Positions 1,067-54,960 of a stretch of 64,000 nt of DNA are shown piece after piece. Position 1 is the stretch's first letter. Each line of letters begins with the position of its first letter. The DNA comes from Eubacteriales bacterium (GTDB lineage: Bacteria > Bacillota > Clostridia > Oscillospirales > CAG-272). The position numbers and the translations under genes are program-made. Where the stretch lies: NCBI GenBank assembly GCA_045602385.1, contig JAZSBL010000010.1, positions 18,802 through 82,801 on the forward strand. The letters are read 5' to 3'. The notes under the pieces are model-generated. The model saw only the letters and a program-made list of their open reading frames with translations, did no database searches and had not been told where the DNA came from.

Positions 1067-1110
1067 AAAACATAGGAGAGTCGAGATTTCTCGACTCTCC
1101 TATATTTTAG
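1066..1110. terminator. bidirectional intrinsic terminator between ORF 50-1066 and rplS
   Basis: TAGGAGAGTCGAGA-tt-TCTCGACTCTCCTA perfect 14-bp stem (1073-1102), with T-runs on both strands. Confidence 0.8.
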
Positions 1111-1120
1111 ACAAAGAATA

Positions 1121-1468
1121 TTACTTTGAAAGATCTTCCTTAACCTTAGAAGCCTTACCAACTCTTCCGCGGAGGTAGTAGAGCTTAGCGCGGCGAACCT
1201 TACCCTTGCGGATAACGTCAACAGCTACTACGTTGGGAGAGTGGAGGGGGAATGTCTTTTCAACACCGCATCCGTAAGCGATTCTTCTAACTGTGAAGGT
1301 AGAAGAGATGCCGCCCTCGTGCTTTGCGATAACAGTACCCTCGTACATCTGAATTCTTTCTCTTGTACCCTCTACGATCTTGTTGTGTACACGAACTGTG
1401 TCACCAATGTTGAACTGGGGTATCTCTGTTTTGAGTTGCTCGTTTGTAAAAGCCTTAATAAGATCCAT
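1121..1468 (-). CDS. rplS: 50S ribosomal protein L19
   Basis: 115 aa; the translation [32 protein letters not shown]...RRAKLYYLR is typical L19. Confidence 0.95.
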
Positions 1469-1550
1469 CTTAAAAGCCCTCCTTCAAAATCCGGATGTTC
1501 TTGCGAGCATTGCAGCGGACCACCCTTAAAATAATGCGTTTTCACACGCG
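1469..1550 (-). promoter_or_regulatory. ~80-nt 5' leader of rplS (possible L19 autoregulatory leader)
   Basis: Lies between the consensus promoter (1557-1585) and the rplS ATG and contains short GC stems. The class assignment is not verified. Confidence 0.3.
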
Positions 1551-1556
1551 GAATTG

Positions 1557-1585
1557 ATTATACCATAAATCTTGCTTTTTTGCAA
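1557..1585 (-). promoter_or_regulatory. sigma-A type promoter for rplS
   Basis: On the minus strand, TTGCAA (1585-1580), 17-nt spacer, TATAAT (1562-1557). Confidence 0.6.
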
Positions 1586-1620
1586 GATAATTACAAAAAT
1601 ATTTGTGAACTAATTGTAAA

Positions 1621-3066
1621 TTATTCGGCAGTCGTTCCCTTTTTACGTCTCATTGAAACAAGAACGTCGCGGCAACCAAGGAAAATATCCTTTCCGTTCA
1701 TTACAATGCTAACTAAAAGCAATCCGCCCGCTACTGCGATTCCTTTAATATCACTTCCCCACACGGTCATCACCGCGGCAATCGCGGTTATAAGAAATGT
1801 GTTGATAATAAGCCTTATCGGGTAGAGCTTGAACGCGATAAATTTCTTCATGGTCAAGGCTCTTATTACAAATACCGCAAAATAGCTTATATAGGTTGCA
1901 ATAGACGCTCCTATCGCTCCGCCGAGGATCCCCTCGCTTGGAATAAGGATTATATTGAGCGCGATATTGAGCGCCGCGCCGATAAGTGACGTCCATAGGG
2001 ACATTGATGTCCTCTTGACGGTAAAATACGCGCTTCCGAGGAAGGTATCAAGCGCAGTAAACACCGTTGCCGCAGAGAGTATCGGTATGAACATCCATGC
2101 CGCAAAATAGCTTTCCGCAAAAAGAATTTTGGCAAAGATCTGCGCGCCCACGGCGAGCATTCCGCCGCCTGCAAACATTACCGCGATATAATACTTAAAT
2201 ACTCCCGAGTAAAACCTTGAGCAGGTGTCCCTGTCACCTGACTCGGCTACTGCCGAGAGCTTCCACGCGTCGTTGAATATAACGACGACGTAGGTCAAAA
2301 GCGTAGGTATTTTATATGCCGCGGCATATAGTCCGTTCATCTCGTCCGAGCAGAAGTATGCGACCATATATCTATCCGACACGCCCGTGATCCACCAGAA
2401 TACCGTTGACGGTATCAGCGGCAGGCAGAAACGCAAAAGGTCCTTCAATATTGCCTTATCGATCTTCTTGGGCATAAAGGCGCGATAAAGCCTTGCCGTG
2501 AATACAAGGAAGATTGTGGAGAGAAAATCCGCCAACACTATTGACAGAACGTAACCGTTTATGCCCATATTGAATCCGACAAGGAACAGAATATTGAGCA
2601 GTACCGTAAGCATGGTGTTAAGCACACCCTGTCCTGCAAAAAGCTTGGTCCTTCCTATCGCGCAGACGTACTGGGAGCAGACCGAATGTATATTTGACGC
2701 CAACACGTAAAGTATGATAAGCCAGATATAATCGGTAAAGTACTTAATGAGATTAAGAAGCGGTGAGAGCGCCAGAAATACCGCTCCGCCAACAAGCATG
2801 AGCAATACACCGTTGGTAAAAAAGGCTTCCTTATCTACGTTTTTCTCTGCCGCGCCGCGGAATATTCCCTCACTTACTCCAAGACAGGCTATCGGGATAA
2901 GCAGATTGCAGAGATTAGTAATAAGGTCTGCGGTACTGTACTGTGCGCTTGTCAGATAGGACGTATAGAACGGGAGCATGAAAATAACGATAAGCTTGGA
3001 TACAAACTTACCTACCGTAAATATTAAAGTGTTGGAAAACAGCTTCTTATATTTGTTCTCTTTCAT
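1621..3066 (-). CDS. MOP-superfamily (Wzx-like) polysaccharide/oligosaccharide flippase
   Basis: 481 aa, polytopic. The N-terminus KKLFSNTLIFTVGKFVSKLIVIFMLPFYTSYLT is typical of polysaccharide biosynthesis flippases. Confidence 0.7.
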   Translation of the reverse strand: MKENKYKKLFSNTLIFTVGKFVSKLIVIFMLPFYTSYLTSAQYSTADLITNLCNLLIPIACLGVSEGIFRGAAEKNVDKEAFFTNGVLLMLVGGAVFLALSPLLNLIKYFTDYIWLIILYVLASNIHSVCSQYVCAIGRTKLFAGQGVLNTMLTVLLNILFLVGFNMGINGYVLSIVLADFLSTIFLVFTARLYRAFMPKKIDKAILKDLLRFCLPLIPSTVFWWITGVSDRYMVAYFCSDEMNGLYAAAYKIPTLLTYVVVIFNDAWKLSAVAESGDRDTCSRFYSGVFKYYIAVMFAGGGMLAVGAQIFAKILFAESYFAAWMFIPILSAATVFTALDTFLGSAYFTVKRTSMSLWTSLIGAALNIALNIILIPSEGILGGAIGASIATYISYFAVFVIRALTMKKFIAFKLYPIRLIINTFLITAIAAVMTVWGSDIKGIAVAGGLLLVSIVMNGKDIFLGCRDVLVSMRRKKGTTAE

Positions 3067-3093
3067 GCGTCCACTTCCGTTTTATTTATTTTA

Positions 3094-3120
3094 CAAGGAA
3101 GCCCGTCAAGGGCTTCCTTG
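3094..3120 (-). terminator. hairpin terminator after yebC
   Basis: CAAGGAAGCCC-gtcaa-GGGCTTCCTTG, an 11-bp stem. The T-run is only moderate. Confidence 0.5.
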
Positions 3121-3135
3121 TTGTCGTTATTCGAT

Positions 3136-3870
3136 TTACTGTGCGGGGTTCTCCCAGTTGTGGTATACCTCAAGAACGTCGTCGTCCTCCTCAAGCTTCT
3201 CGATAAGAAGGCTCATGAACTTGATGTCGTCCTCGTTGTCGAGGTTTACGTATGTTGTGGGAACCTTTGTGGTCTCCGCAGACTCAAGGGTATATCCCTC
3301 CGCCTTAAGCGCGTCCGCGATAGCGTATACGTCGTCGGTGGTCGTGTAGATCTCGAAAACTCCGTCCTCACCGGAGAAGTCCTCAGCGCCCGCCTCAAGG
3401 GCAGTTTCCATAAGCTTATCCTCGTCGATCTCGCCGTCCTCGTCCATGATAACGATAACGCCCTTATCCTCGAACATAAAGCTTACGCAGCCTGTCTGAC
3501 CCATATTTCCGTGGTACTTGGAGAAATAGGAACGGACATTACCCGCAGTTCTGTTTCTGTTGTCTGTAGCCGCCTCAACGATAACTGCGATTCCCGCAGG
3601 TCCGTAGCCCTCGTATACTACCTCCTCGTATGCCTCTCCGCCGCCGCCGAGAGCCTTTTTGATGGTTCTCTCGATGTTGTCGTTAGGTACGTTGTTCGCC
3701 TTTGCCTTCTGGATAAGATCACGAAGCTTGGAGTTGGATGCGGGATCTCCGCCGCCTTCCTTAACCGCAACCGTAATTTCCTTACCTATTCTTGTAAATA
3801 CCTTGGCACGAGCTGCGTCGGTCTTTTCCTTTTTGTGCTTTATGTTAGCCCATTTGCTATGTCCTGACAT
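3136..3870 (-). CDS. yebC: YebC/PmpR family DNA-binding transcriptional regulator
   Basis: 244 aa; MSGHSKWANIKHKK...RDLIQKAKANNVPNDNIERTIKKA is the hallmark YebC N-terminus. Confidence 0.9.
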   Translation of the reverse strand: MSGHSKWANIKHKKEKTDAARAKVFTRIGKEITVAVKEGGGDPASNSKLRDLIQKAKANNVPNDNIERTIKKALGGGGEAYEEVVYEGYGPAGIAVIVEAATDNRNRTAGNVRSYFSKYHGNMGQTGCVSFMFEDKGVIVIMDEDGEIDEDKLMETALEAGAEDFSGEDGVFEIYTTTDDVYAIADALKAEGYTLESAETTKVPTTYVNLDNEDDIKFMSLLIEKLEEDDDVLEVYHNWENPAQ

Positions 3871-3909
3871 GTCTTTATATTCCTTTCAATTATTAACTTT
3901 GACCTGTAA

Positions 3910-5728: not shown

Positions 5729-7402
5729 TTACTCGTTTTTATTTTCAAGCATATCGCGTGCCGCCTGTCTTTGCGATTCGGTGATACTTATACCGCCAAG
5801 TATTCGCGCCGCTTCCTCAATTCGCTCCTCGTATGACAGCTCTCTGATGCTTGTATACGCCCTGCCGTCTATCTCCTGCTTGGAGATCAGGAAATGGTTG
5901 TCCGCAAGCGTTGCTATCTGCGCGGAATGCGTTACGCATATGACCTGACCCGCTCCCGCGATCGAATGTAGCTTTACACCTATCTTTCGCGAGGTCTTTC
6001 CCGAAATTCCCGTGTCTATCTCGTCGTAAACCGAGCAGGTTACACCGTCTTTTTCGTTAAGAACGCTCTTGATTGAGAGCATTATTCTTGCCATCTCTCC
6101 ACCCGACGCGATCTCACTCATTGGCATGAGCGGCTCACCGGGGTTGGTTGCGACCATGAACTCTATCTTATCTGCGCCGTGAGAGTTAAGCTCGTCCGCT
6201 TTGCCGAGCGCTATCTCAAATACTACCTTTGGCATATCGAGATAGGATAGTACATCCACTATCTCTCGCGAAGCGTTCTTTGCCGCAGCAGTTCTCTTTT
6301 TTGTAAGCTCATCCGCTGCCGCGCGGGCCTTTTTCTCAAGAAGCTTTATCTCTTCTCTGTACTTCTCCGCATTCTCGTCGGACAGCTCAATGGAATCAAG
6401 CTCTGCTACCGCTTTATCCCTGAATGCGAGAATTGCCTTTATGTCCTTGCCGTAGCGCTTTTTGAGCGAGGATATTACCTCAAGCCTTGACTCGATCTTA
6501 TCAAGCCTTGCGTCTGCGTCCTCGGAGTCGATATCCGAGAGCGCCTTGACCTCGTCTGCAACGTCCGCTACCTCGTAGCTCATCTCCATGAGCTTTTCGG
6601 CGAGTGGGGCGGCATCGGGTACTACATCTGCTATCTTACCCAGCGACTCGGATGCGCGCGAGAGCATATATGCTACGTCACCGCCTCGCTCACCGCCGCT
6701 GAGCACTCTGTCTGCAAAATTTATGTGCTTATTGATTTTTTCTATATTCTTAAGACGAAGCTTCTCAGATTCAAGCGCCTCTTCCTCTCCGTCCTTCAGT
6801 CTTTTGGAATCGATATCCTTGATCTGGTATTCAAGCATATCGCGCCTTCTCGCCTTCTCCTCTTCGTCGGTGTCTAGAGCGGAAAGCTTGCGCTTTGTTT
6901 CCTCAAGCGCGCGGTAGATCTCTTTGTATGTATCTCTCTCGCCCATGCACTCACCGTAGGAATCGACGAGGTCAAAATAGGCGTTTTTGTTAAACAGTAT
7001 CTTACTGTCGTTTTGTCCGTGGATGGAAATGAGCAATCTTGCCACATCGCGAAGCGCGGTGCGCGTGACCGTTCTGCCGTTTATGCGGTTTGCTGTTTTG
7101 CCATCCGCCGTGAGCTTGCAGCTGATTATCAGTTCTCCGCCCTCGGTATCTATGCCAAGCTCGGATAGCTTATCCGTGATCTCCTCCGACAAGCCGTCAA
7201 ATACCGCCTCCGAGATCGCATAGGCTTCGCCTGAGCGAATCACATCTCTTGTGACTCTTGCGCCGGTGAGCATATTTATACTGTCTATCATGACCGATTT
7301 GCCCGCTCCGGTCTCACCTGTAAGAACGGTAAATCCCGATCCGAAATCGATATCCGCCCGCTTGACAACGGCTATATTTTCAATATGCAGGCTTCTTAGC
7401 AT
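5729..7402 (-). CDS. recN: DNA repair protein RecN
   Basis: MLRSLHIENIAVV...GETGAGKS Walker A, a long coiled coil and a C-terminal signature. Start trimmed to ATG 7402 (SD AGGGAGGG upstream); the track ORF begins at a TTG. Confidence 0.93.
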   Translation of the reverse strand: MLRSLHIENIAVVKRADIDFGSGFTVLTGETGAGKSVMIDSINMLTGARVTRDVIRSGEAYAISEAVFDGLSEEITDKLSELGIDTEGGELIISCKLTADGKTANRINGRTVTRTALRDVARLLISIHGQNDSKILFNKNAYFDLVDSYGECMGERDTYKEIYRALEETKRKLSALDTDEEEKARRRDMLEYQIKDIDSKRLKDGEEEALESEKLRLKNIEKINKHINFADRVLSGGERGGDVAYMLSRASESLGKIADVVPDAAPLAEKLMEMSYEVADVADEVKALSDIDSEDADARLDKIESRLEVISSLKKRYGKDIKAILAFRDKAVAELDSIELSDENAEKYREEIKLLEKKARAAADELTKKRTAAAKNASREIVDVLSYLDMPKVVFEIALGKADELNSHGADKIEFMVATNPGEPLMPMSEIASGGEMARIMLSIKSVLNEKDGVTCSVYDEIDTGISGKTSRKIGVKLHSIAGAGQVICVTHSAQIATLADNHFLISKQEIDGRAYTSIRELSYEERIEEAARILGGISITESQRQAARDMLENKNE

Positions 7403-21805: not shown

Positions 21806-22769
21806 CGCACTTTACGTGGTGGTCGCCACCATCACAGTTCTGCTTGCAGTAGGCTTTATCTGCCGCAAGACGGGAATAATCAACGACGTATCATCCAAAA
21901 ACCTGTCAAGGATAGTTTTAACCGTGGGTCAGCCCGCAATGCTTATTCACTCCATGTCAGGGGCGGAATATAACGAGGAAAACGTCAACATGGCATGGAT
22001 AATGCTCGGTCTTGGTTTTGCCTATCACGCTGTCCTTGCCGTCCTTGCATACCTACTTTCACTGCCTTACAGAAAAAATCTTGACGAGAAGAAGATCTCC
22101 GAATTCGCATTTATGTTCGCCAACTGCGCCTTTATCGGCTTCCCTATCTTCGAGGCCTTGCTTGGACAGCGCGGACTCTTTATGGCGTCCTTCCTCGTGT
22201 TCAGCTTCAACGTTCTCGTATGGACCTGGGGACTTTCGATATATGCCAGAAAGAGATGCGACATAAAGCTCAATATTAAAAAGATACTCCTCAATTTCGG
22301 AACTGTGCCCTGTGTTATCGGCTTTGCTTTCTATCTTCTCAAGGCTCCATCCATCGGATTTGAGCTTCCCGAATTTATTACCAAGGCAGCGGGGTATCTT
22401 ACAAATATCTGCACTCCGATATCCATTCTGATAATAGGCTCGCTTATCGCAACACAGAGTCCAAAGCGGATATTCTGCTCATGGAAGCTCTATTATTTCA
22501 ATGCGGTGAAGCTCTTCATCCTCCCCCTGCTCGTCTGTCTTGTCTCAAAGGTGATAATCACGCTTATCCCGGTCGACGGGCTTGAAATATACGCGATCTT
22601 CGTTACCGCCGCCGCGGCTCTGCCGTCCGGCGCGATCGTATCGATGATGTCCGAAACGTATGGACTTGATTCGGGATATTCCTCTGTTATAGTCGGCACG
22701 TCGTCACTCTTATCGGTGCTTTCCCTGCCACTGACGCTTATGCTTGCCGAAAAGATATTATTTCTTTAA
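21795..22769 (+). CDS. AEC (auxin efflux carrier) family transporter
   Basis: 324 aa with about 10 TM segments. Overlaps the udg stop by 11 nt. Confidence 0.75.
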   Translation: MNFDALYVVVATITVLLAVGFICRKTGIINDVSSKNLSRIVLTVGQPAMLIHSMSGAEYNEENVNMAWIMLGLGFAYHAVLAVLAYLLSLPYRKNLDEKKISEFAFMFANCAFIGFPIFEALLGQRGLFMASFLVFSFNVLVWTWGLSIYARKRCDIKLNIKKILLNFGTVPCVIGFAFYLLKAPSIGFELPEFITKAAGYLTNICTPISILIIGSLIATQSPKRIFCSWKLYYFNAVKLFILPLLVCLVSKVIITLIPVDGLEIYAIFVTAAAALPSGAIVSMMSETYGLDSGYSSVIVGTSSLLSVLSLPLTLMLAEKILFL

Positions 22770-22774
22770 AAATT

Positions 22775-22816
22775 AAAACACCGTCGGTATAGGATTGTAC
22801 CCTAAAGGACAGTTTT
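22775..22816. repeat. left arm of the 42-bp imperfect inverted repeat bounding the low-GC patch
   Basis: AAAACACCGTCGGTATAGGATTGTACCCTAAAGGACAGTTTT matches the reverse complement of 24062-24103 at 39/42 positions. Confidence 0.85.
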
Positions 22817-22821
22817 CAAAA

Positions 22822-22856
22822 ATACGGCATATCTCAAAAGGGGTATGCCGTATTTT
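22822..22856. terminator. hairpin with T-run, first of three consecutive hairpins
   Basis: ATACGGCATA-12 nt-TATGCCGTAT then TTTTG. Followed by TGCATTTGTG-ga-CACAAATGCA (22856-22877) and CTTGTCA-7 nt-TGACAAG (22881-22901). Confidence 0.55.
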
Positions 22857-22921
22857 GCATTTGTGGACACAAATGCAGTGCTTGTCAGGAAAATTGACAA
22901 GGCATAGGTGGACAAAAAAGG

Positions 22922-22967
22922 CTCCCTTGTGTAAAGGGAGCTGTCAGCGAAGCTGACTGAGGGATTG
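22922..22967. repeat. inverted-repeat arm (3' side) of DUF559 element 1
   Basis: CTCCCTT-gtgta-AAGGGAG followed by GTCAGC-gaa-GCTGAC. Confidence 0.85.
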
Positions 22968-23312
22968 TTCTACGAGGTGATCAATATATTCACAGACACC
23001 CCGAAAGTTTTTATATATTTCCGTATTCGGTATTCTGATAACTGTCAAACCGTATTCTGCAAGAAAAGCGGTTCTTTCTTCATCGTATTGCTTTCCTTCC
23101 TCGCTATAATGCCCAGAGCCGTCAAGCTCTATGACGAGCTTTGCCTCTGCACAGTAAAAATCTGCGATATACTTTCCGAGAACCTTTTGACGAGAAAAGC
23201 GGACGGGATAAGCGCGCAGAAAATCATACCAAAGATGTTTTTCCTCTTTGGTCATATTCTTCCGTAGCATTTTTGCGGTAGGAACGATATCTTTATTATG
23301 TTTTCTCTGCAT
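22944..23312 (-). CDS. DUF559 / Vsr-like (PD-(D/E)XK) endonuclease domain protein
   Basis: MQRKHNKDIVPTAKMLRKNMTKEEKHLWYDFLR...IADFYCAEAKLVIELDGSGH... is the typical DUF559 core. Start trimmed to ATG 23312. Confidence 0.8.
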   Translation of the reverse strand: MQRKHNKDIVPTAKMLRKNMTKEEKHLWYDFLRAYPVRFSRQKVLGKYIADFYCAEAKLVIELDGSGHYSEEGKQYDEERTAFLAEYGLTVIRIPNTEIYKNFRGVCEYIDHLVEQSLSQLR

Positions 23313-23314
23313 TA

Positions 23315-23362
23315 CAATCCCTCCGTCACGCTCCGCGTGCCACCTCCCTTTACACAAGGGAG
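23315..23362. repeat. inverted-repeat arm (5' side) of DUF559 element 1
   Basis: CACGC-tcc-GCGTG followed by CTCCCTT-tacac-AAGGGAG. Contains the stop codon of the methyltransferase ORF. Confidence 0.85.
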
Positions 23363-23955
23363 GCTTTTGTGCTAACCGTTACGTATGCGTGGTCTGTTTC
23401 AAATTCATTTACAATTTTAAGCTTTGTTATTGATAGATAACTACGTATATCGTTAGGGTTATCGGGATAAATTTTTATTTTTCTATTTCCCATATCGATA
23501 TACTCATTCTTATTTTTATCGATTGATAAAACGAAAAGTCCGTTGTTTGTCAGCAAAGTAGCAATTTTTTGTATAGCTGATAATTTATCTTGTATATGCA
23601 TAAAGGTTAATGACGAGTATATTACATCGAACTGTGATTCAAATTCATAAGACATAAAATCACCGCAAATAAGCTTTATATTTCGATACGTTGATAGATT
23701 TTCAGCCGCTCTACCAATTGTCTTTTCGGAAATATCTATTCCACACAAGCTTTTACAATTTGGTGCAATTTTTATGGCAAGTCGCCCTGTTCCGATTCCT
23801 ATTTCCAAAGCGGATTTGCTTTTATCAAGCCGCATACTCTCGATAAACTTCTCTCCGTCCCACTTATCCATATAATCTCTCAAAGGTTTAGGATCACGAG
23901 TAGGGTCATTGTTTTCGTCAATTAGCTTGTTATAATGTTCAATCACATCTCTCAT
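23350..23955 (-). CDS. class I SAM-dependent methyltransferase (small-molecule type)
   Basis: 201 aa; motif I ALEIGIGTGRLA, then GIDISEK and DVIYSSLTFMHI. A hand count on one 60-nt line gives ~33% GC. Confidence 0.8.
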   Translation of the reverse strand: MRDVIEHYNKLIDENNDPTRDPKPLRDYMDKWDGEKFIESMRLDKSKSALEIGIGTGRLAIKIAPNCKSLCGIDISEKTIGRAAENLSTYRNIKLICGDFMSYEFESQFDVIYSSLTFMHIQDKLSAIQKIATLLTNNGLFVLSIDKNKNEYIDMGNRKIKIYPDNPNDIRSYLSITKLKIVNEFETDHAYVTVSTKASLV

Positions 23956-24013
23956 ATATGTACCGTCCTTTTATCAAGGTTTTAGCAAATGTTCGTACTC
24001 TATTATATCACAA

Positions 24014-24040
24014 AAACCTCAGAAAATCAATCTGAGGTTT
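24014..24040. terminator. hairpin between divIC and the methyltransferase gene
   Basis: AAACCTCAGA-7 nt-TCTGAGGTTT. On the minus strand it is followed by TTGTGATATAAT, a possible -10 for the methyltransferase gene. Confidence 0.5.
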
Positions 24041-24061
24041 CTGTTTTTTCTGTCGGCAGAT

Positions 24062-24103
24062 AAAACTGTCCTTTAGGGTACAGTCCTATTACGACGGTGT
24101 TTT
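24062..24103. repeat. right arm of the 42-bp imperfect inverted repeat bounding the low-GC patch
   Basis: Reverse complement of 22775-22816 at 39/42 positions. Abuts the divIC stop codon. Confidence 0.85.
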
Positions 24104-24523
24104 TTATTTTCCGTTAGAATCGTTATGATATATTATCTCATCGGGCAAGAACAGATTAAGCTTTTCCTTGGCCACTCTTATTATATATTCGTAGTCCACG
24201 GGCGAGTCTATAAGATACTCAAGCTCTTCTTTCTCCGCCTCGTATTCCTCTACCTTTGCTTCAAGCACCTCTTTTTCGCGCTTCAGCTCACTGTATCTCA
24301 TAAGTCCCGTGACAAAGGCGGTTATAGACACGATAAGCAATACAGCAAGCAAGAGCCTTGCTGTGACCTTTATATGAGGGGCCTTCATACCCTTTTTTAT
24401 CGCACGCTCAAGATTCTTCTCGGACTGCTCCTGTGCGCTATCCGTCTCACCGACGTCCCCCACCGAAGCTGATGCGACCTTCTTTTCTATATCCTCTTGC
24501 ACCCTTGGCATTATCTTCCTCAT
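24104..24523 (-). CDS. divIC: septum formation initiator family protein (FtsB/DivIC)
   Basis: A TM helix, then coiled coil LKREKEVLEAKVEEYEAEKEELEYLIDSP..YIIRVAKEKLNL. The true start may be ATG 24511 or further inside. Confidence 0.75.
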   Translation of the reverse strand: MRKIMPRVQEDIEKKVASASVGDVGETDSAQEQSEKNLERAIKKGMKAPHIKVTARLLLAVLLIVSITAFVTGLMRYSELKREKEVLEAKVEEYEAEKEELEYLIDSPVDYEYIIRVAKEKLNLFLPDEIIYHNDSNGK

Positions 24524-45723: not shown

Positions 45724-48561
45724 TTATTTGGCAAGCCACTTTTTGAGATACTGTCCGGTGTAAGAGCCTGCCACCTCGGCAACCTCCTCAGGCGTTCCCT
45801 CGGCAACGATTCTTCCGCCGCCGTCACCGCCCTCCGGACCGAGATCGATAATATGGTCGGCGCACTTGATAACGTCAAGATTATGCTCGATCACAAGCAC
45901 GGAATTTCCTCCGTCGCATACCATCTGCAAGACCTCAAGGAGCTTTGCAACGTCGGCGGTATGAAGTCCCGTCGTGGGCTCATCGAGAATATATATCGTC
46001 TTGCCTGTGCTTCTCTTTGAAAGCTCGGTTGCAAGCTTGACTCTCTGCGCCTCGCCGCCCGAAAGCGTTGTCGAGGACTGACCTATCTTGATATATCCAA
46101 GTCCTACGTCATAGAGTGTCTTAAGCTTTCTGGTTATCCTCGGCAGACCGTCAAAGAAAGCGAGTCCCTCCTCTACCGTCATGTCAAGTACGTCAAATAT
46201 ATTCTTGCCCTTGTATTTCACCTCAAGAGTCTCTGCGTTATATCTTCTTCCCTTACATACGTCGCAGGTGACGTAAACGTCGGGTAAGAAATGCATCTCT
46301 ATGCATTTAACTCCGTCACCCTCGCACGCCTCGCATCTTCCGCCCTTGGTGTTAAAGGAGAATCTGCCCGGCAGATATCCTCTTGCCTTGGCGTCCTTTG
46401 TCTGCGCGAAAAGGTCGCGGATATCGGTGAAAAGCCCCGTATAGGTCGCGGGGTTGGAGCGCGGTGTGCGTCCGATCGGGCTCTGGTCGATGCAGATGAC
46501 CTTATCAAGCGCCTCAAGTCCTTCAATTTCCTCACATTTACCGGGATATGCTATCGCGCGGTTAAGATCGTGCGCGAGCTTGGGATAGAGTATTCCGTTC
46601 ACAAGCGAGGATTTTCCACTGCCCGAAACACCCGTAACGCATACGAATTTACCAAGCGGTATTTTAACGTCTATTCCTTTGAGATTATGCTCTGCCGCGC
46701 CCTTTACGGTGATAAAGCTGCCGTTGCCCTCTCTGCGAGTGGCGGGTACAGATATTCTTCTTCTGCCCGAAAGATACGCGCCTGTAAGCGAGTCCTCGTT
46801 TTGCTTTATCTCGTCGGGTGTTCCCGCCGCAACGACCTCACCGCCGTGGATTCCCGCGCCGGGTCCTATATCTATGATATAGTCGGACTCCTCCATCGTT
46901 TCCTCATCGTGCTCGACAACTATAACGGTGTTGCCGAGGTCGCGGAGCTTTTTAAGGGTTGCGATAAGCTTTGAATTATCGCGCTGGTGAAGTCCTATGC
47001 TCGGCTCGTCAAGGATGTAAAGCACTCCGACGAGTGACGAGCCTATCTGAGTCGCAAGTCTTATTCTCTGCGCCTCGCCGCCCGAAAGCGTGCCTGCCTT
47101 TCTTGCAAGCGTAAGGTAATCAAGTCCTACGCTGACAAGGAAACCAAGGCGCGCGCGGATCTCCTTGAGTATCTCGTGCGCGATCGCAAGCTCTGTTTCG
47201 TTAAGCTCAAGTGAGTTTGTAAAATCAAGCGCGTCCCTGACCGACATAGCGCAGAATTCATGTATATTCCTGCCGCCGACGGTGACCGCAAGCGACATGG
47301 GGTTAAGTCTTTGTCCGTGGCAGAATTCGCAGTCTGTTTCTTCGATAAACTGCTCGTAATAATCGGGGCTCATGCCAAAATTGAGCCTTTGCTCCATCAT
47401 TTTGATAATGCCCTCAAAGACCGATTTTTTATCGTGCGCCTCTCCGCCGAAATAGCGCGTGACTCGGTATGTTTCAGCTCCCGAGCCGTGCAAAAGCACG
47501 TCGTAGGCCTCGGCCGAAAAGTCCTTGATCGGCATATCGAGCGTAAAGCCGAATTTTTCACCGACGGCACGGAAAAGAGGGCCGTTCCAGCTCTCCTCCT
47601 CAAGCGTTTTGAATCCGTTTACGTTTATCGCGCCCTCGGACAACGAGAGCTTTTTGTCGGGTATTATTCTATCTATCGATATTTTTCTCGTCTGACCAAG
47701 TCCCGAGCAATGAGGGCACGCGCCCTGCGGGTTGTTAAAGGAGAACATTCGAGGCTCAAATTCGCCGACTGAGATACCGTGCTCCTCACAGGCGTAGGAC
47801 TGCGAGAATGACAGAACCTCGCCCTCGCTCTCCTCCTCGCCGCGCTTCACGGGAACGATAAGCAGATGTCCGTCCGCCAGGTTCAAGGCGGTCTCAATGC
47901 TGTCGGCAAGTCTTTGACGTATTCCCTCGCGCATAACAAGGCGGTCTACAACTATTTCAATAGAGTGCTTTTTATTTTTGTCAAGCTTTATCTCCTCGGA
48001 AAGATCATAGAGTATTCCGTCGACGCGCACACGGACAAAGCCGCTCTTCTTCGCGTCGGAAAGCACCTTTTCATGCATTCCCTTTTGCGCTATTACCACG
48101 GGGGCAACGACCAGAAATCTCTCTCCCTCGGGGAGCTTGAGAACACGGCCTATTATCGTGTCAACGCTCTGCCGTCTTATCTCCTTGCCACAAACGGGAC
48201 AGTGAGGTATACCTATCCTCGCATACAAAAGACGGAGATAATCATATATCTCGGTAACGGTTCCGACGGTCGAGCGCGGGTTCTTTGAGGTCGTTTTCTG
48301 GTCAATTGATATCGCGGGAGAAAGTCCGTCTATCGAATCGACGTCGGGCTTGTCAAGCTGACCTAAGAACATTCTCGCGTAGCTTGAAAGCGACTCGACA
48401 AACCGTCTATGCCCCTCGGCATACACGGTATCAAACGCGAGTGACGACTTTCCGCTGCCCGACAGTCCGGACAAGACCACAAGCTTGTCCCTGGGTATCG
48501 TGACGTCAATATTTTTCAGATTGTGGACGCGCGCGCCCTTTATCACTATGTTTTTTTCCAT
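45724..48561 (-). CDS. uvrA: excinuclease ABC subunit A
   Basis: 945 aa; two ABC ATPase modules ([20 protein letters not shown]) and zinc modules ([13 protein letters not shown]). Confidence 0.97.
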
Positions 48562-48673
48562 TCTTTTTTCTCTGTAAGCCTTTTGAAAAAAGCTTTCCCG
48601 AACCCTTCAAAATATTTCTATAAAAACATCCTATTTATTAAGTCTTTATTTAAGCAAAACAAGCATCAAATCT

Positions 48674-48738
48674 CGCCTTGCGTAAGCCTTCCCCAAGGCA
48701 GGGGAAGGGGGACCGCGTTCCGCGGTGGATGAGGATGC
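48674..48738. repeat. inverted-repeat arm (3' side) of DUF559 element 2
   Basis: Contains CCTTCCCC-aaggca-GGGGAAGG and CCGCG-ttc-CGCGG hairpins. Confidence 0.9.
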
Positions 48739-48766
48739 ACGGTTCAGTGCATTTCATCCCATAAAA

Positions 48767-49141
48767 TTATCTATCAAATTGCAGGTCAGAAAAATCCAAT
48801 CCAATATGGTTGAGAATATCCGATGTTACACCCTCAAATCTTTTTTTAATGTCAAAATTTGTATATCTTAACACCGTAATACCATAATTAGACAGAACAT
48901 TATCTCTTTCTCTATCATATTCCCTTGCTTCGGGCTCAAAATGCTGTGATCCGTCAAGCTCTATCGCTATTTTATGACTTGGGATAAAAAAATCCAAAAT
49001 ATAGTTTTCAATGCAATATTGTCGCTTAACTGTGATGGGAAGCTTAACGAGAAAATCATACCATAAATGCTTTTCTTCCTTTGTCATTCCCTTGCGCAAC
49101 GCCTTTGCATTTGCAGTAAGTCTTATATTGTGTGGGTACAT
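48767..49141 (-). CDS. DUF559 / Vsr-like (PD-(D/E)XK) endonuclease domain protein
   Basis: 124 aa; ...ALRKGMTKEEKHLWYDFL...ILDFFIPSHKIAIELDGSQH... is a paralog of 22944-23312. Confidence 0.8.
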   Translation of the reverse strand: MYPHNIRLTANAKALRKGMTKEEKHLWYDFLVKLPITVKRQYCIENYILDFFIPSHKIAIELDGSQHFEPEAREYDRERDNVLSNYGITVLRYTNFDIKKRFEGVTSDILNHIGLDFSDLQFDR

Positions 49142-49174
49142 TACATTCTCCTATATTTTGTTTTCTGTAATGGG

Positions 49175-49239
49175 GCATCCTCATCCACCGCGAAACGCGG
49201 TCCCCCTTCCCCTGCCTTGGGGAAGGCTTACGCAAAGCG
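49175..49239. repeat. inverted-repeat arm (5' side) of DUF559 element 2
   Basis: Reverse complement of 48674-48738 at 63/65 positions. Confidence 0.9.
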
Positions 49240-49380
49240 TGCCGTGAGGAAAATATATCAAGTTCTATTTAACACAAGCAATCCGTGTGTCGTATTAGCA
49301 TTTGCAAAAAGCCTTGGGGAAGGCTTACGCAAAGCGTGCCGTGAGGAAAATATATCAAGCTTTAGCCAACACAAGCAATC
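49214..49380. repeat. direct duplication, period 97 bp, including the outer 26 bp of the element-2 arm
   Basis: 49214-49262 and 49311-49359 are identical (49/49). The next 21 nt match at about 16/21. Confidence 0.85.
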
Positions 49381-49399
49381 TTGATGATTACCCTATTCG

Positions 49400-51373
49400 T
49401 CAGCCTTCTCTTAATTTCTTGATCTCGTCGCGCAGGTATGCCGCCTTTTCAAATTCAAGGCTGCGGGCGGCATCCTTCATCTCGCGCGTATACTGCTCGA
49501 TGAGCTTCTCGCGCTCCGATGCCGTGAGCTTCTTTTTCCTCTTTTCAAGGCGGCTCTTGCCCTTATCCTCGCTCGACGCGCCCATGTCAATTATATCGCG
49601 GATTCCCTTGATTATAGTCTTTGGAACAATGCCGTGCGCCTTATTATATTCGTCCTGTATCTTTCGGCGGCGGTTGGTCTCGCTTATCGCGCGCTCCATA
49701 GAGCCCGTGATATTGTCCGCGTACATTATGACCTTGCCCTCCGCGTTTCTCGCGGCTCTGCCTATGGTCTGGATAAGCGAACGTTCAGCGCGCAAGAATC
49801 CCTCCTTGTCCGCGTCAAGGATCGCAACCAGCGACACCTCGGGAATGTCAAGTCCCTCGCGCAAGAGGTTGATGCCCACAAGCACGTCAAAAACTCCCAT
49901 TCTGAGGTCGCGGATTATCTCCATTCTCTCAATGGTATCAATGTTAAAGTGAATATATCTGACCTTGATGCCGTTGTCCTCAAGGTAGTCGGTGAGGTCT
50001 TCCGCCATCTTCTTTGTAAGAGTCGTTACGAGAACTCTCTCGCCCTTCTCGGTCCTCTTGCGGATCTCGCCCATAAGGTCGTCTACCTGACCCTCGATAG
50101 GTCTTATCTCGACCTCGGGATCAAGCAGTCCCGTAGGTCTGATTATCTGCTCCACGGTCTGCTCTCCATGCTCGTTTTCGTAGTCTCCGGGCGTTGCGCT
50201 TACAAAGACCGCCTGATTAATTCTTTGCTCAAATTCCTCAAAGAAAAGCGGGCGATTGTCGTATGCCGAGGGCAGACGGAAGCCATAGTCTATAAGATTT
50301 TTCTTTCGTGCCGTGTCGCCGCCGCTCATGCCGCGCACCTGCGGCAGAGTTACGTGAGATTCGTCCACGAAAAGCAGAAAATCCTTTGGGAAATAGTCAA
50401 GCAGAGTGTAAGGCGTTGAGCCTGCGGGGCGGCGCGAGAGTATTCTCGAATAGTTCTCTACACCCGAGCAAAATCCGATCTCGGAGAGCATCTCCATGTC
50501 GTATTTTACCCTCTCGGTTATTCTCTGCGCCTCGATGAGCTTGCCCTCCGACTCAAAATAGGCAGCGCGCTCGCGCATTTCGGCAAGGATCTCGTCAATA
50601 GCCGCCTCGCGCTTTTCGTCGGACACGGCATAGTGCGTTGCGGGGTATATCGGGGCGTAGGAAAGCTGACGGATAAGCTCACCCGTCACTATGTTTATTT
50701 CGCTTACTCTGTCAATTTCATCGTCAAAGAACTCGATGCGTATCGCCTTGGAATCCATGCTGGCGGGGATGATCTCTACCACGTCACCGCGCACCCTGAA
50801 GCTGTCACGGACAAGGTTTAAGTCATTTCTCGTATAGCTTATAGAGATAAGGCGGCGGATAAGCTCCTCTCGCGCCATCGTCATTCCGGGACGGAGAGAG
50901 ATAACGAGGTCCTTATATTCGTCGGGCTCACCGAGCGAATATATGCAGGAAACGCTTGCCACGATAATGACGTCGCGGCGCTCAAAGAGCGAGCTTGTCG
51001 CGCTGTGGCGGAGTCGGTCTATCTCCTCGTTTACAAGGGCGTCCTTTTCGATATACATATCCTTACCGGGAATGTATGCCTCGGGCTGATAGTAGTCGTA
51101 GTAGGACACGAAATACTCGACCGCGTTTTCGGGGAAAAACTCGCGGAACTCGGAGCAAAGCTGAGCCGCCAAGGTCTTATTGTGCGCCAAAACGAGAGTG
51201 GGGCGGTTGATCTCGGCAATAACGTTTGCCATGGTAAAGGTCTTACCCGAACCTGTAACGCCGAGCAGTGTCTGCATTCTCTGACCCGACCTTATTCCGT
51301 CCACTATTTTCTTTATTGCCTCGGGCTGATCGCCCGTCGGCTTGTATTCACTTTTAAGCTTAAAATCCGCCAT
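49400..51373 (-). CDS. uvrB: excinuclease ABC subunit B
   Basis: 657 aa; GVTGSGKT Walker A, DESH box, beta-hairpin region and C-terminal UVR domain. Confidence 0.97.
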
Positions 51374-51431
51374 AGCGACCTCCCGTAGTTTAAATTTTCG
51401 TCATAGCTTTAGTAATACTACACCATATTAT

Positions 51432-51460
51432 ATTATACCACGAATAATTTTAAATGTAAA
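51432..51460 (-). promoter_or_regulatory. sigma-A type promoter for uvrB
   Basis: On the minus strand, TTTACA, 17-nt spacer, TGgTATAAT. Confidence 0.55.
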
Positions 51461-51770
51461 TACGTTTATTCCCTTTTCTTTGCGGTAATTTCTGCATACC
51501 TTCCGCTAGTCAACAGTAAAAAAGCAAGGCTTTTGAGGTTTACTTTTTCCCGGTAATGCGATATAATTATATTGCCCCCAAAAATACTCTCCTTTTTGGA
51601 TTTTTTATCACAAAATACACCGAAAAAAATCTCAAAAAAATTTGAAAACTCGAAAAAACCGCCAAAAAAACTCCTTTTTAAAAAAGAGGAAAAACAACGA
51701 GAGCTTTCAAGGATTAAAAATCAATTGCCATAAGGAAAAATCACACTTTTTGTTATTAACACAAGCGCCC

Positions 51771-51806
51771 TTCTGTTAGCGGCTGTGTTAGCGCTTCTGT
51801 TAGAAC
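51771..51806. repeat. 3 x 12-bp direct repeat
   Basis: TTCTGTTAGCGG / CTGTGTTAGCGC / TTCTGTTAGAAC. Confidence 0.8.
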
Positions 51807-51807
51807 C

Positions 51808-51909
51808 TATAGAATAGAATAGTATAGAATAGTATAGAATAGTATAGATAGAATAGAATAGTATAGAAAAGAATAGTATACTATAGATAGAAAGATAGAA
51901 TGAAAGAAT
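51808..51909. repeat. degenerate (TATAGAATAG)n low-complexity tandem repeat
   Basis: About 100 bp built from ATAGA/ATAGT units, with three perfect consecutive ATAGAATAGT copies. Confidence 0.85.
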
Positions 51910-52034: not shown

Positions 52035-54776
52035 CTATTCGTTAACTATCCCAACATTGATAAGCGTAGGATAATTTCCATTTGAAATGTTCCAAATTGA
52101 GTTCTTCCAACCCAGCGTTGTCTTTTGGAATGATGATGACTTCAAGGTAGATATGGCACTCGTTGTCCCAAGTCTATTTGTTGGCTCATAAGTGGTAGTA
52201 CTATTCTGAATCACGGTAAACGTTTGCCCGCTATTAGAATAACAGTTATTGACTGAACTTGTTGCTCCCGTCTGATAAGCAACTACTCCTCCTGCATACC
52301 CGCCATAAGAACTTGCTATGGAAACCATCACAGAACCAGTTGCAAAGCTATAATTAATAGTTCCACCATCATCATTCACTCCAACCAATCCTCCAGCATA
52401 AACATAATATGTGCCTCCGCTGGTACTGCTCACCTTCCCCGTTGCGTAGCAATTATCTATTTTTCCGTTCTCATTTCTACCGACAAGTCCTCCGGCACGT
52501 CCGTGATAACTACCGGCAGATATTACTTGTCCAGTTGCATAGCAATTGCTGATAGTTCCCTCATAATTTTGTCCAACTAAGCCACCAGTGTTATTGTTTC
52601 CACTAGTTGTGCCACTATTAGACGACTTTACGATTCCTGTTGCATAACAAGCACTTATAGCGCCCTGATAATTTGTGCCTACCAGTCCACCTGTACAATT
52701 TGTTGAATTACCCATTGTCGAAGCTGTTACGTTTACTGATGCATAGCAATTGCCAATTGTTGCTCCATCTTCATTATAGCCAACTAACCCGCCTACGTAC
52801 GCTCCACGACTTGAGACGGTTATCGAACCATTCGTATAACAATTTATTACACTGCCGTAGTTAAATGCAACTAATCCACCCGCATACAAGTTTCCATCTG
52901 TGCTGGCGTCTATAGTGAAGCTCTCTACACCAAGATTCTTTATTGTTCCGCCATTGTGGGCAAATAAGCCTACCCAACAATTATCATTGCTGGTAATTTT
53001 GAAATTATAAATAACATGGCCATCTCCATTCAACGTTCCTGTAAATGGTTTGCTTGATTCAGGAAATAGTCCTGTCCATTCTACGCCGTACAGATTAATG
53101 TCGTTCAATAACAGGTAATTCTTATCTCGCTTCATCGCTTTAAGTTGATCTGCGTTGCTTATCGATATCACTCCGCATAATGTGCACGTTTGATTGTTGA
53201 AAACATGCCCCCATCTCTTTTCACATGTGTTGTAATCGCATCTCGAACATGTATCATAAGCATCCCAACCCTTTACTGAACAAGTGGGTTTTTTCGCTTC
53301 ATGATGTATTAGGTCGTGTCCCAAAGCATCTCCGTATATATAGGTTGAGCTACCCCTTGCTGTACAATTTTCACATTTGTAATAATAGATTGCGCTATCA
53401 TGACAACTTGCAGGAGTTTTTAAGTATGTTGATGTGGCAGTCTTAGAAGTATAGCTATGGCCAATTGCTGGTATCGTTTGATATGTTGTTGTATAACCAC
53501 ACATAGAACAACTTGCATAAGCTTCCCACCCCGCTTTAGTGCATGTAGCTTCTTGTGCCTCGTGTTCTACAAGTGTTGTTCCAGCGGGAATTATTTCATA
53601 CGTATTATAGTCACATCTTGTACATGTCACATAATCCTTATATCCATCGTTCACACATGCATCATAATCACCGGTATGTTCAACTATGTCGTGCCCAAGA
53701 GCTTGAATAAGCTCATATGATGTATAATCACACTTTTTGCATGTAACGTATTCGTTCCAGCCTGTCTCTGTACAGGTTGGTTCTTTTGCACCATGAAATA
53801 GTTCCTCATGTCCCAGTGCCGGAATCTCTACGTATGTAGTATAGTCACATTTCAAACATGCCGTATACTCTTCCCAGCCAATTTCAACACATGTTGGATC
53901 TTTCGAACCATATGTTATTTCGTCATGACCAAAAGGCGGTATTTCTTCGTAAGTAGAATAATTACATCTATAACATGTAACATATTCCTCCCATCCACAC
54001 TCAGTACATGTGGGATCTTTGGCCTCATGTAAAATAGTAATATGTCCAAGTGCAGGTTTCTCTATATATGTTGTATAATCGCATTTTAAACAAATTACAT
54101 AATCATCCCACCCTTTACCATAACATGTTGGCGACAAGCCTGGATACTCCACCACATCATGACCAAGTGCCGCTTTTTCAATATATGTTGAATAATCACA
54201 TCTTGTACAAGTGACATATTTATCCCATCCTATCTCTGTACAGGTTGGTGTTTTTGCCTCGTGCAATTTTTCATCATGACCAAGTGCTGGTTTTTCTGCA
54301 TAAGTTGAAAAACCACATCTTAAACAAACGGTATATGCATCCCATCCTATTCCAATGCATGTGGGGGATTGGCTGTCATACTGCTCATTACAATGTCCAA
54401 GCGCCTCAATACTCTGAGTTTCCTTCTCACCACACGCACAATTTCTTTCCATCACTCCCTCTTTAGTGCAAGTAGCGGAAATCATCGCTGACCACTCACC
54501 AAAAGAGTGAACATGAGCCTCAGCACCTTCTTCGTCATCGATTGTTTCTTTTTCCGTTGTGGCTTCTTCAACAGTTGTTTCTGCCACTGTGGTCCCTTCT
54601 GCTATTGATTCTTCAATAGTTATCCCTTCAACTATTGCTCCTTGCTCTACTTTAGTAACATCATTGTTCTCTCCCTTGGCTGTAGCCATACTCTCATAAT
54701 TATTATTGCCACCACATGCCACGAAAAAAATCATACTAAAAGCCATAGCGAGCAACAACACCAAAATCTTCTTCAT
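52035..54776 (-). CDS. large secreted lipoprotein with ~11 Cys3-His 39-aa tandem repeats and C-terminal GLUG-motif repeats
   Basis: Lipobox FVAC|GG after MKKILVLLLAMAFSMIF. Repeats of ALGH-x8-9-PTC-x5-GW-x2-Y-x2-C-x2-C-x-Y, then 7-8 GGLVG..N.G.I.NCYATG units. Start trimmed to ATG 54776 (SD GGAGGAAAAG). Hand counts on two 60-nt lines give 35-38% GC. Confidence 0.7.
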   Translation of the reverse strand: MKKILVLLLAMAFSMIFFVACGGNNNYESMATAKGENNDVTKVEQGAIVEGITIEESIAEGTTVAETTVEEATTEKETIDDEEGAEAHVHSFGEWSAMISATCTKEGVMERNCACGEKETQSIEALGHCNEQYDSQSPTCIGIGWDAYTVCLRCGFSTYAEKPALGHDEKLHEAKTPTCTEIGWDKYVTCTRCDYSTYIEKAALGHDVVEYPGLSPTCYGKGWDDYVICLKCDYTTYIEKPALGHITILHEAKDPTCTECGWEEYVTCYRCNYSTYEEIPPFGHDEITYGSKDPTCVEIGWEEYTACLKCDYTTYVEIPALGHEELFHGAKEPTCTETGWNEYVTCKKCDYTSYELIQALGHDIVEHTGDYDACVNDGYKDYVTCTRCDYNTYEIIPAGTTLVEHEAQEATCTKAGWEAYASCSMCGYTTTYQTIPAIGHSYTSKTATSTYLKTPASCHDSAIYYYKCENCTARGSSTYIYGDALGHDLIHHEAKKPTCSVKGWDAYDTCSRCDYNTCEKRWGHVFNNQTCTLCGVISISNADQLKAMKRDKNYLLLNDINLYGVEWTGLFPESSKPFTGTLNGDGHVIYNFKITSNDNCWVGLFAHNGGTIKNLGVESFTIDASTDGNLYAGGLVAFNYGSVINCYTNGSITVSSRGAYVGGLVGYNEDGATIGNCYASVNVTASTMGNSTNCTGGLVGTNYQGAISACYATGIVKSSNSGTTSGNNNTGGLVGQNYEGTISNCYATGQVISAGSYHGRAGGLVGRNENGKIDNCYATGKVSSTSGGTYYVYAGGLVGVNDDGGTINYSFATGSVMVSIASSYGGYAGGVVAYQTGATSSVNNCYSNSGQTFTVIQNSTTTYEPTNRLGTTSAISTLKSSSFQKTTLGWKNSIWNISNGNYPTLINVGIVNE
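53169..54515 (-). repeat. 117-bp (39-codon) in-frame tandem repeats inside the lipoprotein gene
   Basis: GH anchors at ORF residues 153, 192, 231, 270, 309, 348 and 387 are spaced exactly 39 aa apart, followed by four looser copies. Confidence 0.8.
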
Positions 54777-54960
54777 TTTCTTTTCCTCCGCTAAATAAAA
54801 AAGTGCGCAGCCGAAGCTACGCACAAAAAACACGCGCTCCGATTGCTGCGACACAATTTTTCACCAATTCCAAAAATGAGAAAAAGGAGTACGTATTTTT
54901 ATCCATTAATAAAAATACCCACTTTTGAAATTGGATAATATTAAATTGTGTCGCAGCATT
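54777..54960 (-). promoter_or_regulatory. ~178-nt structured 5' leader with an intrinsic terminator (candidate riboswitch/attenuator, class unknown)
   Basis: A 16-bp long-range stem (54958-54943 with 54859-54844), and terminator GTGCGTAGC-uucg-GCTGCGCAC plus U-run (54824-54793) just before the SD. Confidence 0.5.

Follow-up and report, generated by a model that had tools for sequence, protein, structure and literature searches.

A DUF559 gene between inverted copies of a dispersed two-hairpin repeat in the uvrBA operon: a predicted selfish nuclease cassette of uncultured gut Clostridia

Organization of the uvrB–uvrA locus

The stretch of DNA analysed here, 64 kb of contig JAZSBL010000010.1 from a Eubacteriales bacterium (hereafter the window), carries a small DUF559 gene enclosed by inverted repeats between uvrB (49400–51373), which forms the upstream border of the insertion site, and uvrA (45724–48561). 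Domain matches confirm the gene order uvrB, DUF559, uvrA, with all three genes co-directional on the minus strand. The DUF559 open reading frame (ORF; 48767–49141, minus strand) encodes 124 amino acids and matches PF04480. The two arms that flank it, 48674–48738 and 49175–49239, are reverse complements at 63 of 65 positions, the mismatches falling at 48677 and 48720. An initial annotation, made from the sequence alone, had described the ORF, the same count of complementary positions, the two hairpins in each arm and the placement between uvrB and uvrA, and all of these were borne out. In 100 shuffles of the window, neither 26- nor 40-nt fragments of the arms occurred by chance.

Both arms are copies of a two-hairpin module of ~58 nt, here termed M. 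The upstream arm (49173–49239, minus strand) is a sense copy, identified from the inverted-repeat pair, its fold and a covariance-model match at 49173–49232 (79.6 bits); it consists of an outer segment CGCTTTGCGTAAG, hairpin 1 (CCTTCCCC/GGGGAAGG), GGG, hairpin 2 (ACCGCG/CGCGGT) and a tail GGATGAGGATGC, and its end lies 33 nt from the ATG. The short leader that runs from the M tail to the ATG (49142–49172, minus strand) contains, on direct reading, its own Shine–Dalgarno sequence AGGAG (49148–49152). In the downstream arm (48674–48740; inverted-repeat pair and covariance-model match at 48681–48740, 80.1 bits) M lies on the plus strand, antisense to the gene; its tail is directed into the gene and starts 28 nt past the stop codon. 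Structure prediction for each arm (−16.6 to −16.8 kcal/mol, z −2.6 to −3.6) gives both hairpins (CCTTCCCC-6-GGGGAAGG and CCGCG-3-CGCGG). The arms are GC-rich (65–68%) and the ORF has a GC content of 34.7%; its lowest 60-nt stretch, at 23.3%, agrees with the value of about 23% estimated initially, whereas uvrB measured 52.5% and not about 60%. The same layout was found in three independent JGI samples (L186–L188; labels of this form denote sequence stretches around homologs, relatives or M copies), and Logan contigs run from the DUF559 ORF into both arms, which together exclude an assembly artefact for the unit.

The initial annotation had treated the 566 bp from arm to arm as the insert. Comparison with the empty junctions of relatives (L189–L193), contigs joining 48561 to 49402 and the identity profile against L186 all point instead to a larger inserted block of ~750 bp (48653–49399, minus strand), which extends from just past the uvrB stop codon to the point at which the native uvrA leader (GCTTAAATAAAGAC...) resumes. 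A loose repeat (GATTGCTTGTGTT...) lies near both borders of this insert. A repeat search also detected a tandem duplication with a 97-nt period, its first copy at 49214–49283 and its second at 49311–49380 (minus strand); the duplicated block comprises the outer 26 nt of the arm and the 44 nt beyond it, the duplicate copy (49311–49336) holds an M truncated in the loop of hairpin 1, and the duplication is also present in L186. Tandem duplications at the 5′ border suggest repeated illegitimate or site-specific recombination there. We note that L001 contains three tandem 116-nt units, each running from M through the leader and ~19 nt into the ORF.

Several familiar identities for the arms were considered and rejected. 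The initial annotation had allowed that they might be ordinary terminators, but a terminator scan of 48300–49600 returned no terminator-like site and no T-run follows the arms, which rules out an intrinsic terminator pair. An Rfam search of 48000–50000 gave no match at E ≤ 1, and the Clostridiales-1 RNA motif was ruled out by the Rfam searches. An integron attC site or a CRISPR array does not fit the anatomy, which is that of two separate arms without an array.

The DUF559 protein

DUF559 is a large family without an assigned function. The window protein matches PF04480 with an E value of 2.9e-25 (88.7 bits, the curated cut-off being 20.6) and the DUF559 structure of PDB entry 3hrl with an E value of 7e-10; in Pfam and NCBIfam searches it matches DUF559 and not the Vsr family model. 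Its AlphaFold model (pLDDT 84) has as best structural matches in Foldseek 3hrl, 3r3p, which is the catalytic domain of the homing endonuclease I-Bth0305I, and Vsr (1cw0, 1vsr). Residues D50, E61, D63, H67, D76, R79 and R92 are invariant across 16 homologs. On this modelling the protein is predicted to have a restriction-endonuclease-like fold with conserved acidic and histidine core residues, in line with the initial description of a Vsr-like DUF559 endonuclease. No transposase domain was found in the domain search of the protein, and an exact-sequence look-up returned no entry on record. A defence-system identity was rejected, as PADLOC gave only weak domain-level matches (DpdF, mREase). Vsr, DUF559 and DUF2726 form one PD-(D/E)XK clade, whose only known functions are Vsr repair and intron homing (Steczkiewicz et al., PMC3424549).

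The arms belong to a dispersed repeat family

Read 5′ to 3′ toward the gene, M comprises an optional head CGCTTTGCGTAAG, hairpin 1 (CCTTCCCC-AAGGCA-GGGGAAGG), a GGG or GGT linker, hairpin 2, in which the sequence is variable and the stem retained, and a purine-rich tail GGATGAGGATGC. A degenerate pattern scan over one genome per species retrieved 101 stretches; about 120 of the 142 pattern matches are true copies, located in Clostridia, Eubacteriales or Oscillospiraceae metagenome-assembled genomes (MAGs), and about 20 are chance matches in GC-rich phyla that lack hairpin 1. When 99 distinct copies were aligned, hairpin 1 was 97.5% paired, with one pair present as U-A in 64 copies and as C-G in 26, and four of the six pairs of hairpin 2 varied on both sides. 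The observed covariation score was reached by none of 500 shuffles. Copy number can be high, at least 27 exact-pattern copies being present in MAG JAZKYL, which together with JAZOMF is among the M-rich MAGs, and the dominant hairpin-2 variants differ from genome to genome. No Rfam family matched the uvr-site arms, or, at E ≤ 10, those of the second unit described below. The initial annotation had described the arms as terminal inverted repeats, and further copies were sought as a test of its selfish-element reading; many were found in genomes and metagenomes, and the arms are members of a large family and not private to this gene. From these comparisons M can be described as a dispersed, structured, REP/MITE-like repeat family (repetitive extragenic palindrome; miniature inverted-repeat transposable element).

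M occurs as solo copies, as tail-inward pairs and as tail-outward doublets. The tail-inward pairs that lack an ORF (L027, L028, L006, L060, L011 and L080) consist of M, ~50 nt and an inverted M, and thus have the same arrangement as is found around the DUF559 gene minus the ORF. The tail-outward form, the commonest doublet of family 1 of the repeats, is a discrete, near-palindromic element of ~290 nt with conserved ends and unrelated flanks (n = 25). It was considered as a deletion derivative of the DUF559 unit, an origin rejected because its modules face the wrong way. Many of these doublets lie 5–15 nt past a hairpin followed by a T-run, that is an intrinsic terminator (L016, L026, L048, L067, L077, L079, L090 and L093), suggesting that doublets prefer terminators or T-tracts as targets. 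Two MAGs also share the position of a solo copy upstream of an argininosuccinate-lyase-like gene (L008 and L039, at ~1425–1460 and 5750–5785), and some solo copies are therefore old and vertically kept. A further property of the copies from L005–L105 is that three positions covary, the hairpin-1 5′ arm (T/C), its 3′ arm (A/G) and the tail (GGATGAGG / GGGTGAGG), and that this holds even between the two arms of a single doublet; the only alternative pairing found for it is a weak one of YTCCCC with GGTGGR.

A second DUF559 unit in the window

A second unit lies at 22913–23371. Its gene, DUF559-2 (22944–23312, minus strand; 122 amino acids from the ATG at 23312), matches PF04480 with an E value of 2.3e-29 (101.9 bits), and its product is 45% identical to the first DUF559 protein. 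The arms are diverged, symmetric copies of M of 57–58 nt, and the differences between them in hairpin 2 are compensatory. The downstream arm (22913–22971, plus strand), delimited by its fold and by a contig joint at 22969, encodes the last eight codons and the stop codon of DUF559-2, while the purine-rich tail GGAGGG of the upstream arm (23312–23371, minus strand; fold, and covariance-model match at 23312–23369 with 15.1 bits and E 0.004, third best in the window) is the ribosome-binding site immediately before the ATG. In each of four metagenomic runs, contigs at a depth of 70–141 bridge 22969 and 23312 through 12–19 unrelated letters, from which it follows that the ORF occupies exactly the loop position of an M–loop–inverted M palindrome.

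The abundance of the repeats was apparent from depth in these four gut or faecal metagenomes (herbivore and human gut). At the uvr site, bins within the arms had a depth of 160–510, the ORF core 5–9 and uvrA and uvrB ~10–50, so that the M arms were at 20–60 times the depth of the ORF core, which itself was at single-copy depth. For the second unit the corresponding values were 5,500–41,000 for the arms, 200–570 for the ORF and 0–8 for the host flanks. ORF-less palindromes outnumber ORF-bearing units.

The second unit is itself nested. A 49-nt inverted repeat (88%; 22768–22816 and 24062–24110) encloses it together with an ORF for a class I S-adenosylmethionine methyltransferase (23350–23955, 34% GC), a generic enzyme and not a DNA C5 methyltransferase, and the segment so bounded sits between a Mem_trans gene and a DivIC gene. 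Bins containing the 49-nt repeat arms (22763–22869 and 23940–24046) had a depth of 380–2,200 against 0–8 in the host flanks, and this repeat looks like another repeat family, one that bounds a composite insertion.

M is associated with DUF559 genes

The covariance model of M, which is specific to family 1, was run unfiltered across the window and gave only three credible matches, all of them flanking the two DUF559 genes. Among 80 metagenomic DUF559 loci sampled at 50–71% identity to the window protein, 69 had M at E ≤ 1e-3 within 1.5 kb (136 matches in 181 kb), and the matches concentrated at the borders of the DUF559 genes, mostly abutting them. Of 71 loci that could be assessed at the start, 27 had a sense M no more than 100 nt upstream; of 72 assessed at the stop, 24 had an antisense M and 16 a sense M inside the same 100-nt distance. 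Independently of any model, 63 loci were scored for repeats in their flanks: 19 had an inverted repeat scoring at least 20 and 13 had a direct repeat, and none of 315 shuffled flanks exceeded 12.5. The window units scored 60 (uvr site) and 35 (second unit), the former being the most perfect flank inverted repeat observed. Inverted arms are thus found at ~30% and direct arms at ~20% of homologous loci. Enclosure by an inverted repeat is therefore frequent but only one of several layouts; what stays constant is that M abuts the gene. An nhmmer profile of M built from sequence only recovered 93 matches in the metagenomic DUF559 loci, fewer than the covariance model with its 136 (E ≤ 1e-3) or 262 (E ≤ 1), and was dropped. 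In orthologs at 72–77% identity (L001–L004, L059 and L073), which lie directly upstream of uvrA, the arms have been kept and the protein has diverged. DUF559 genes are strongly and specifically associated with M, different paralogs with different M variants. Another subfamily (62% identity) occurs in three MAGs (L036, L040 and L074) between a T-box-like leader/terminator and aspS, with an M doublet upstream and no downstream arm; the ORF of L074 is frameshifted.

One explanation for this association is that M elements are MITEs mobilized by an unrelated enzyme, with DUF559 genes serving only as preferred landing sites or passengers and with no enzyme–substrate relation between the two. Most M copies lie far from any DUF559 gene, many doublets sit just downstream of intrinsic terminators as if they had a target preference of their own, and the arrangement of M around DUF559 varies between inverted, direct and one-sided, all of which such a model would accommodate. 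It does less well with the extreme specificity of the association, which takes in all of the M matches in the window and 69 of the 80 loci, or with the fact that each paralog has its own M variant, that an arm can supply the ribosome-binding site or the last codons and that the ORF exactly replaces the palindrome loop. No transposase gene was noticed beside M in ~100 loci, although no systematic search for one was made. We consider this explanation improbable.

Another possibility, already raised in the initial annotation, is that the arms act as RNA, pairing in a uvrB–uvrA read-through transcript as a 65-bp duplex that insulates, processes (for example as an RNase III site) or stabilizes the nuclease mRNA. 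The duplex is thermodynamically possible, since in the minimum-free-energy fold of a 591-nt RNA the arms are paired over their full length (−247 kcal/mol, z −14); M is in the sense orientation within the 5′ leader at most loci, and in the second unit its tail is the ribosome-binding site. However, the pairing is not conserved among homologous loci: inverted arms occur at only the minority given above, direct or single arms being about as common, and the differences between the arms in L003 and in the second unit keep the local hairpins and break the pairing between arms. M is moreover abundant away from any gene, and the lack of an Rfam family match also speaks against a known RNA device. An RNA function of this kind is very unlikely to account for the arms.

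Presence, absence and exchange of the cassette

The nearest relatives of UvrA were located and their gene contexts compared; all share the downstream synteny PHP, DUF5662, PBP5, PGI. Relatives at 94% UvrA identity (L186–L188) carry the same cassette. Those at 92% (L189–L191) are empty, with 85 nt between the uvrB stop and the uvrA start and no trace of M, and those at 91% (L192–L193) are likewise empty, with 12 nt between the two genes. Empty alleles were present alongside filled ones in all four metagenomes, and in three variants, one of them a joint of 48561 to 49402 with 11 letters between. The presence/absence polymorphism that the initial annotation had anticipated thus exists, and the cassette is accessory, ~750 bp inserted into a uvrB–uvrA operon that is compact without it.

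Between the window and L186, DNA identity is 89.2% in uvrB, 86.8% in uvrA and 78% in PHP, compared with 98.8% in the cassette and 99.5% in the DUF559 ORF; the adjacent ~150 nt of uvrB and ~200 nt of uvrA are intermediate, at 94% and 95% respectively. The common ancestor of the cassette, at 98.8% against 87–89% in uvrB and uvrA, is therefore much more recent than that of the surrounding chromosome, a contrast drawn from this single pair. The identity profile indicates that the cassette was recently exchanged between lineages by recombination in the flanks, taking short stretches of uvrB and uvrA with it. The downstream arm of L186 and L188 has unrelated sequence (GCACTAGCGCAGTCTGTGCAGCC) in place of ~20 nt of its hairpin 1, the remaining cassette being 99% identical.

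The uvr-site subfamily of DUF559 was found only upstream of uvrA, in at least seven genomes whose UvrA identities range from 82 to 97%. This restriction, the single-copy depth and the lack of a clear target-site duplication make the cassette unlike a site-jumping transposon. Each DUF559 subfamily is site-bound and at single-copy depth, which is unlike a transposon and resembles a homing endonuclease gene or a RAYT (the transposase associated with REP repeats). The same distribution raises the possibility that DUF559 is an accessory DNA-repair gene resident in the uvrBA operon, recruited there as a Vsr-like repair nuclease, inherited vertically and sometimes lost, with M an incidental neighbour or untranslated-region element. 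Its co-directional position directly upstream of uvrA in every one of those genomes, an identity that tracks that of UvrA and the predicted Vsr-like fold would all be expected of such a gene. Against this, the gene is missing from the compact operons of the closest relatives; the near-identity of the cassette to that of L186 is far above that of its flanks; the GC content is 35% compared with 52% in the flanking genes; and there is no adjacent cytosine methyltransferase. Other DUF559 subfamilies, furthermore, occupy unrelated sites (between the T-box-like leader and aspS, or beside a methyltransferase), and M accompanies DUF559 genes at whatever site. On balance, recruitment as a repair gene is an unlikely explanation.

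We also considered that the arms might form an invertible switch, in which recombination between them turns the gene around with respect to transcription of the operon. The inverted repeat spans 65 nt and is nearly perfect, and where inversion targets have been predicted from inverted repeats, ‘DUF559 domain-containing protein’ shows a 14-fold enrichment among them (PMC9881135). That published enrichment can be attributed to the M arms, because they form inverted repeats, and the gene was co-directional with uvrA in all of the at least 12 loci examined. No strand-changing joints were present among the best-supported metagenome joints, and a recombinase gene is absent nearby. A switch is scarcely credible here.

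Proposed model

We propose that the uvr-site unit is one copy of a recurrent cassette of uncultured gut Clostridia (Ruminococcaceae/Oscillospiraceae-like MAGs), in which a predicted selfish, site-bound nuclease gene is combined with cognate REP/MITE-like repeats in a manner resembling RAYT–REPIN systems or homing endonucleases; we would put the probability of this reading at roughly 0.55. In this model two inverted M copies make up a palindrome, with the DUF559 gene in its loop. The nuclease would recognize its cognate M, as folded hairpins or as the palindrome, and nick or cleave it. Recombinational repair through the 60-nt M arms or the chromosomal flanks could then copy the ORF into ORF-less M palindromes or empty alleles, in a homing-like manner. 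The same nuclease activity may also sustain the propagation of non-coding M elements, as in RAYT–REPIN systems, while the DUF559 gene itself would remain single-copy and bound to one site. The minimal selfish or homing-type element envisaged in the initial annotation is thus partly supported, by the polymorphism, the further copies of the arms and the contrast between cassette and flanks, and has to be amended in that the repeats are not private, the block is ~750 bp and the element does not behave as a site-jumping one.

A number of observations weigh against this model. By the family-1 model, 30 of 63 DUF559 loci have no adjacent M, a fraction that overestimates the M-free loci because the model is specific to that family. 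Neither a target-site duplication nor short direct repeats were found at the ends of the doublets. The empty uvrB–uvrA junctions contain no M palindrome and the whole M–ORF–M block was inserted, so that the uvr site did not acquire the ORF by strict homing into a target already in place. In more distant genomes DUF559 identity follows that of UvrA (92 against 97%, 84 against 94%, and 67–77 against 82–86%), a pattern as compatible with long vertical inheritance and occasional loss as with repeated invasion. Finally, known Vsr-like enzymes are nickases or homing endonucleases without strand-transfer activity, and these would not readily account for the spread of ORF-less M elements.

Comparison with known systems

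A close parallel is with REPIN–RAYT systems (Nunvar 2010; Bertels and Rainey 2011, PMC3116915). In both, short hairpin-forming extragenic repeats exist as many dispersed copies, often in inverted doublets, the repeat variants are genome-specific, and a gene that is single-copy, site-bound and for the most part vertically inherited lies between inverted copies of the repeat variant belonging to it. The cassette is nevertheless not a member of that group: its enzyme is a PD-(D/E)XK Vsr-like nuclease and not a Y1 HUH transposase, M is longer (~58 nt, with two hairpins and a purine-rich tail) and lacks the GTAG/CGTC head, the hosts are Clostridia where those of REPIN–RAYT are Proteobacteria, and the DUF559 cassette is itself present or absent and laterally exchanged. 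It could be, though we hold this only tentatively and would sooner doubt than assert it, that Clostridia DUF559 proteins are the dedicated nucleases of a new and very abundant class of REP-like two-hairpin repeats, a second gene–repeat partnership of independent evolutionary origin, analogous to RAYT–REPIN that works through a PD-(D/E)XK nickase and nick-induced gene conversion and not through HUH transposition.

With the Vsr-fold homing endonucleases (EDxHD family, I-Bth0305I, PDB 3r3p; PMC3239194, PMC2677866) the cassette shares the predicted catalytic fold (Foldseek TM 0.60/0.75), a likeness to the EDxHD family at the level of the predicted fold. It likewise has a small AT-rich gene that is present or absent at a fixed site, and an insert far more similar between lineages than its flanks, with a co-conversion-like gradient in the one pair compared. 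It differs in that the DUF559 gene lies outside any intron or intein, has no extra DNA-binding domain and is flanked by copies of a dispersed repeat, and in that the empty alleles have no obvious palindromic target. Insertion sequences and their derived MITEs also place a coding unit between inverted repeats and are accompanied by many more ORF-less elements that share those repeats; here, however, a transposase of the DDE, HUH, serine or tyrosine type is lacking, no clear target-site duplication was seen, the complete DUF559 unit is single-copy at one site, and the modules of the commonest family-1 doublet point outward, which is not a simple internal deletion of the unit. Vsr itself (PF03852, PDB 1cw0) is a small stand-alone protein of the same predicted fold and catalytic core, but the window protein matches DUF559 and not the Vsr family model, its neighbours are uvrB and uvrA and not a partner cytosine methyltransferase, and the gene behaves genomically as an accessory insertion.

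Novelty and implications

In full-text literature searches, neither M repeats nor the bounding of DUF559 genes by repeats was found to have been described, the latter in agreement with the initial annotation. The findings suggest that the nuclease-plus-repeat cassette is a previously undescribed selfish system that joins a new enzyme class to a new repeat family, and that a core repair operon, uvrBA, is able to host an optional selfish cassette. With depths of up to 40,000 where host flanks are at 0–8, M ranks with the most abundant non-coding DNA of the herbivore and human gut metagenomes sampled, and its repeats interrupt assemblies and give rise to false ORFs and false predictions of programmed inversion. 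If the proposed partnership between nuclease and repeat is correct, it would give DUF559 a testable function, extend, with a new class of enzyme, the few systems that maintain repeat populations within genomes, and explain both the enrichment of DUF559 among predicted inversion targets and the presence of repeats at thousand-fold depth in gut metagenomes. It could also provide a structure-specific nickase of practical use.

Other features near the locus

In the lineage of L003 and L004, a gene for a 926-amino-acid AAA_11/AAA_12 (Upf1-like) helicase (1092–3872) lies between uvrB and the DUF559 cassette, and the uvrB–uvrA gap therefore accumulates accessory genes. In the window, the region upstream of uvrB (51400–51900) is very AT-rich (30–33% GC), and beyond it lies a gene for a 939-amino-acid GLUG-motif protein (52035–54854).

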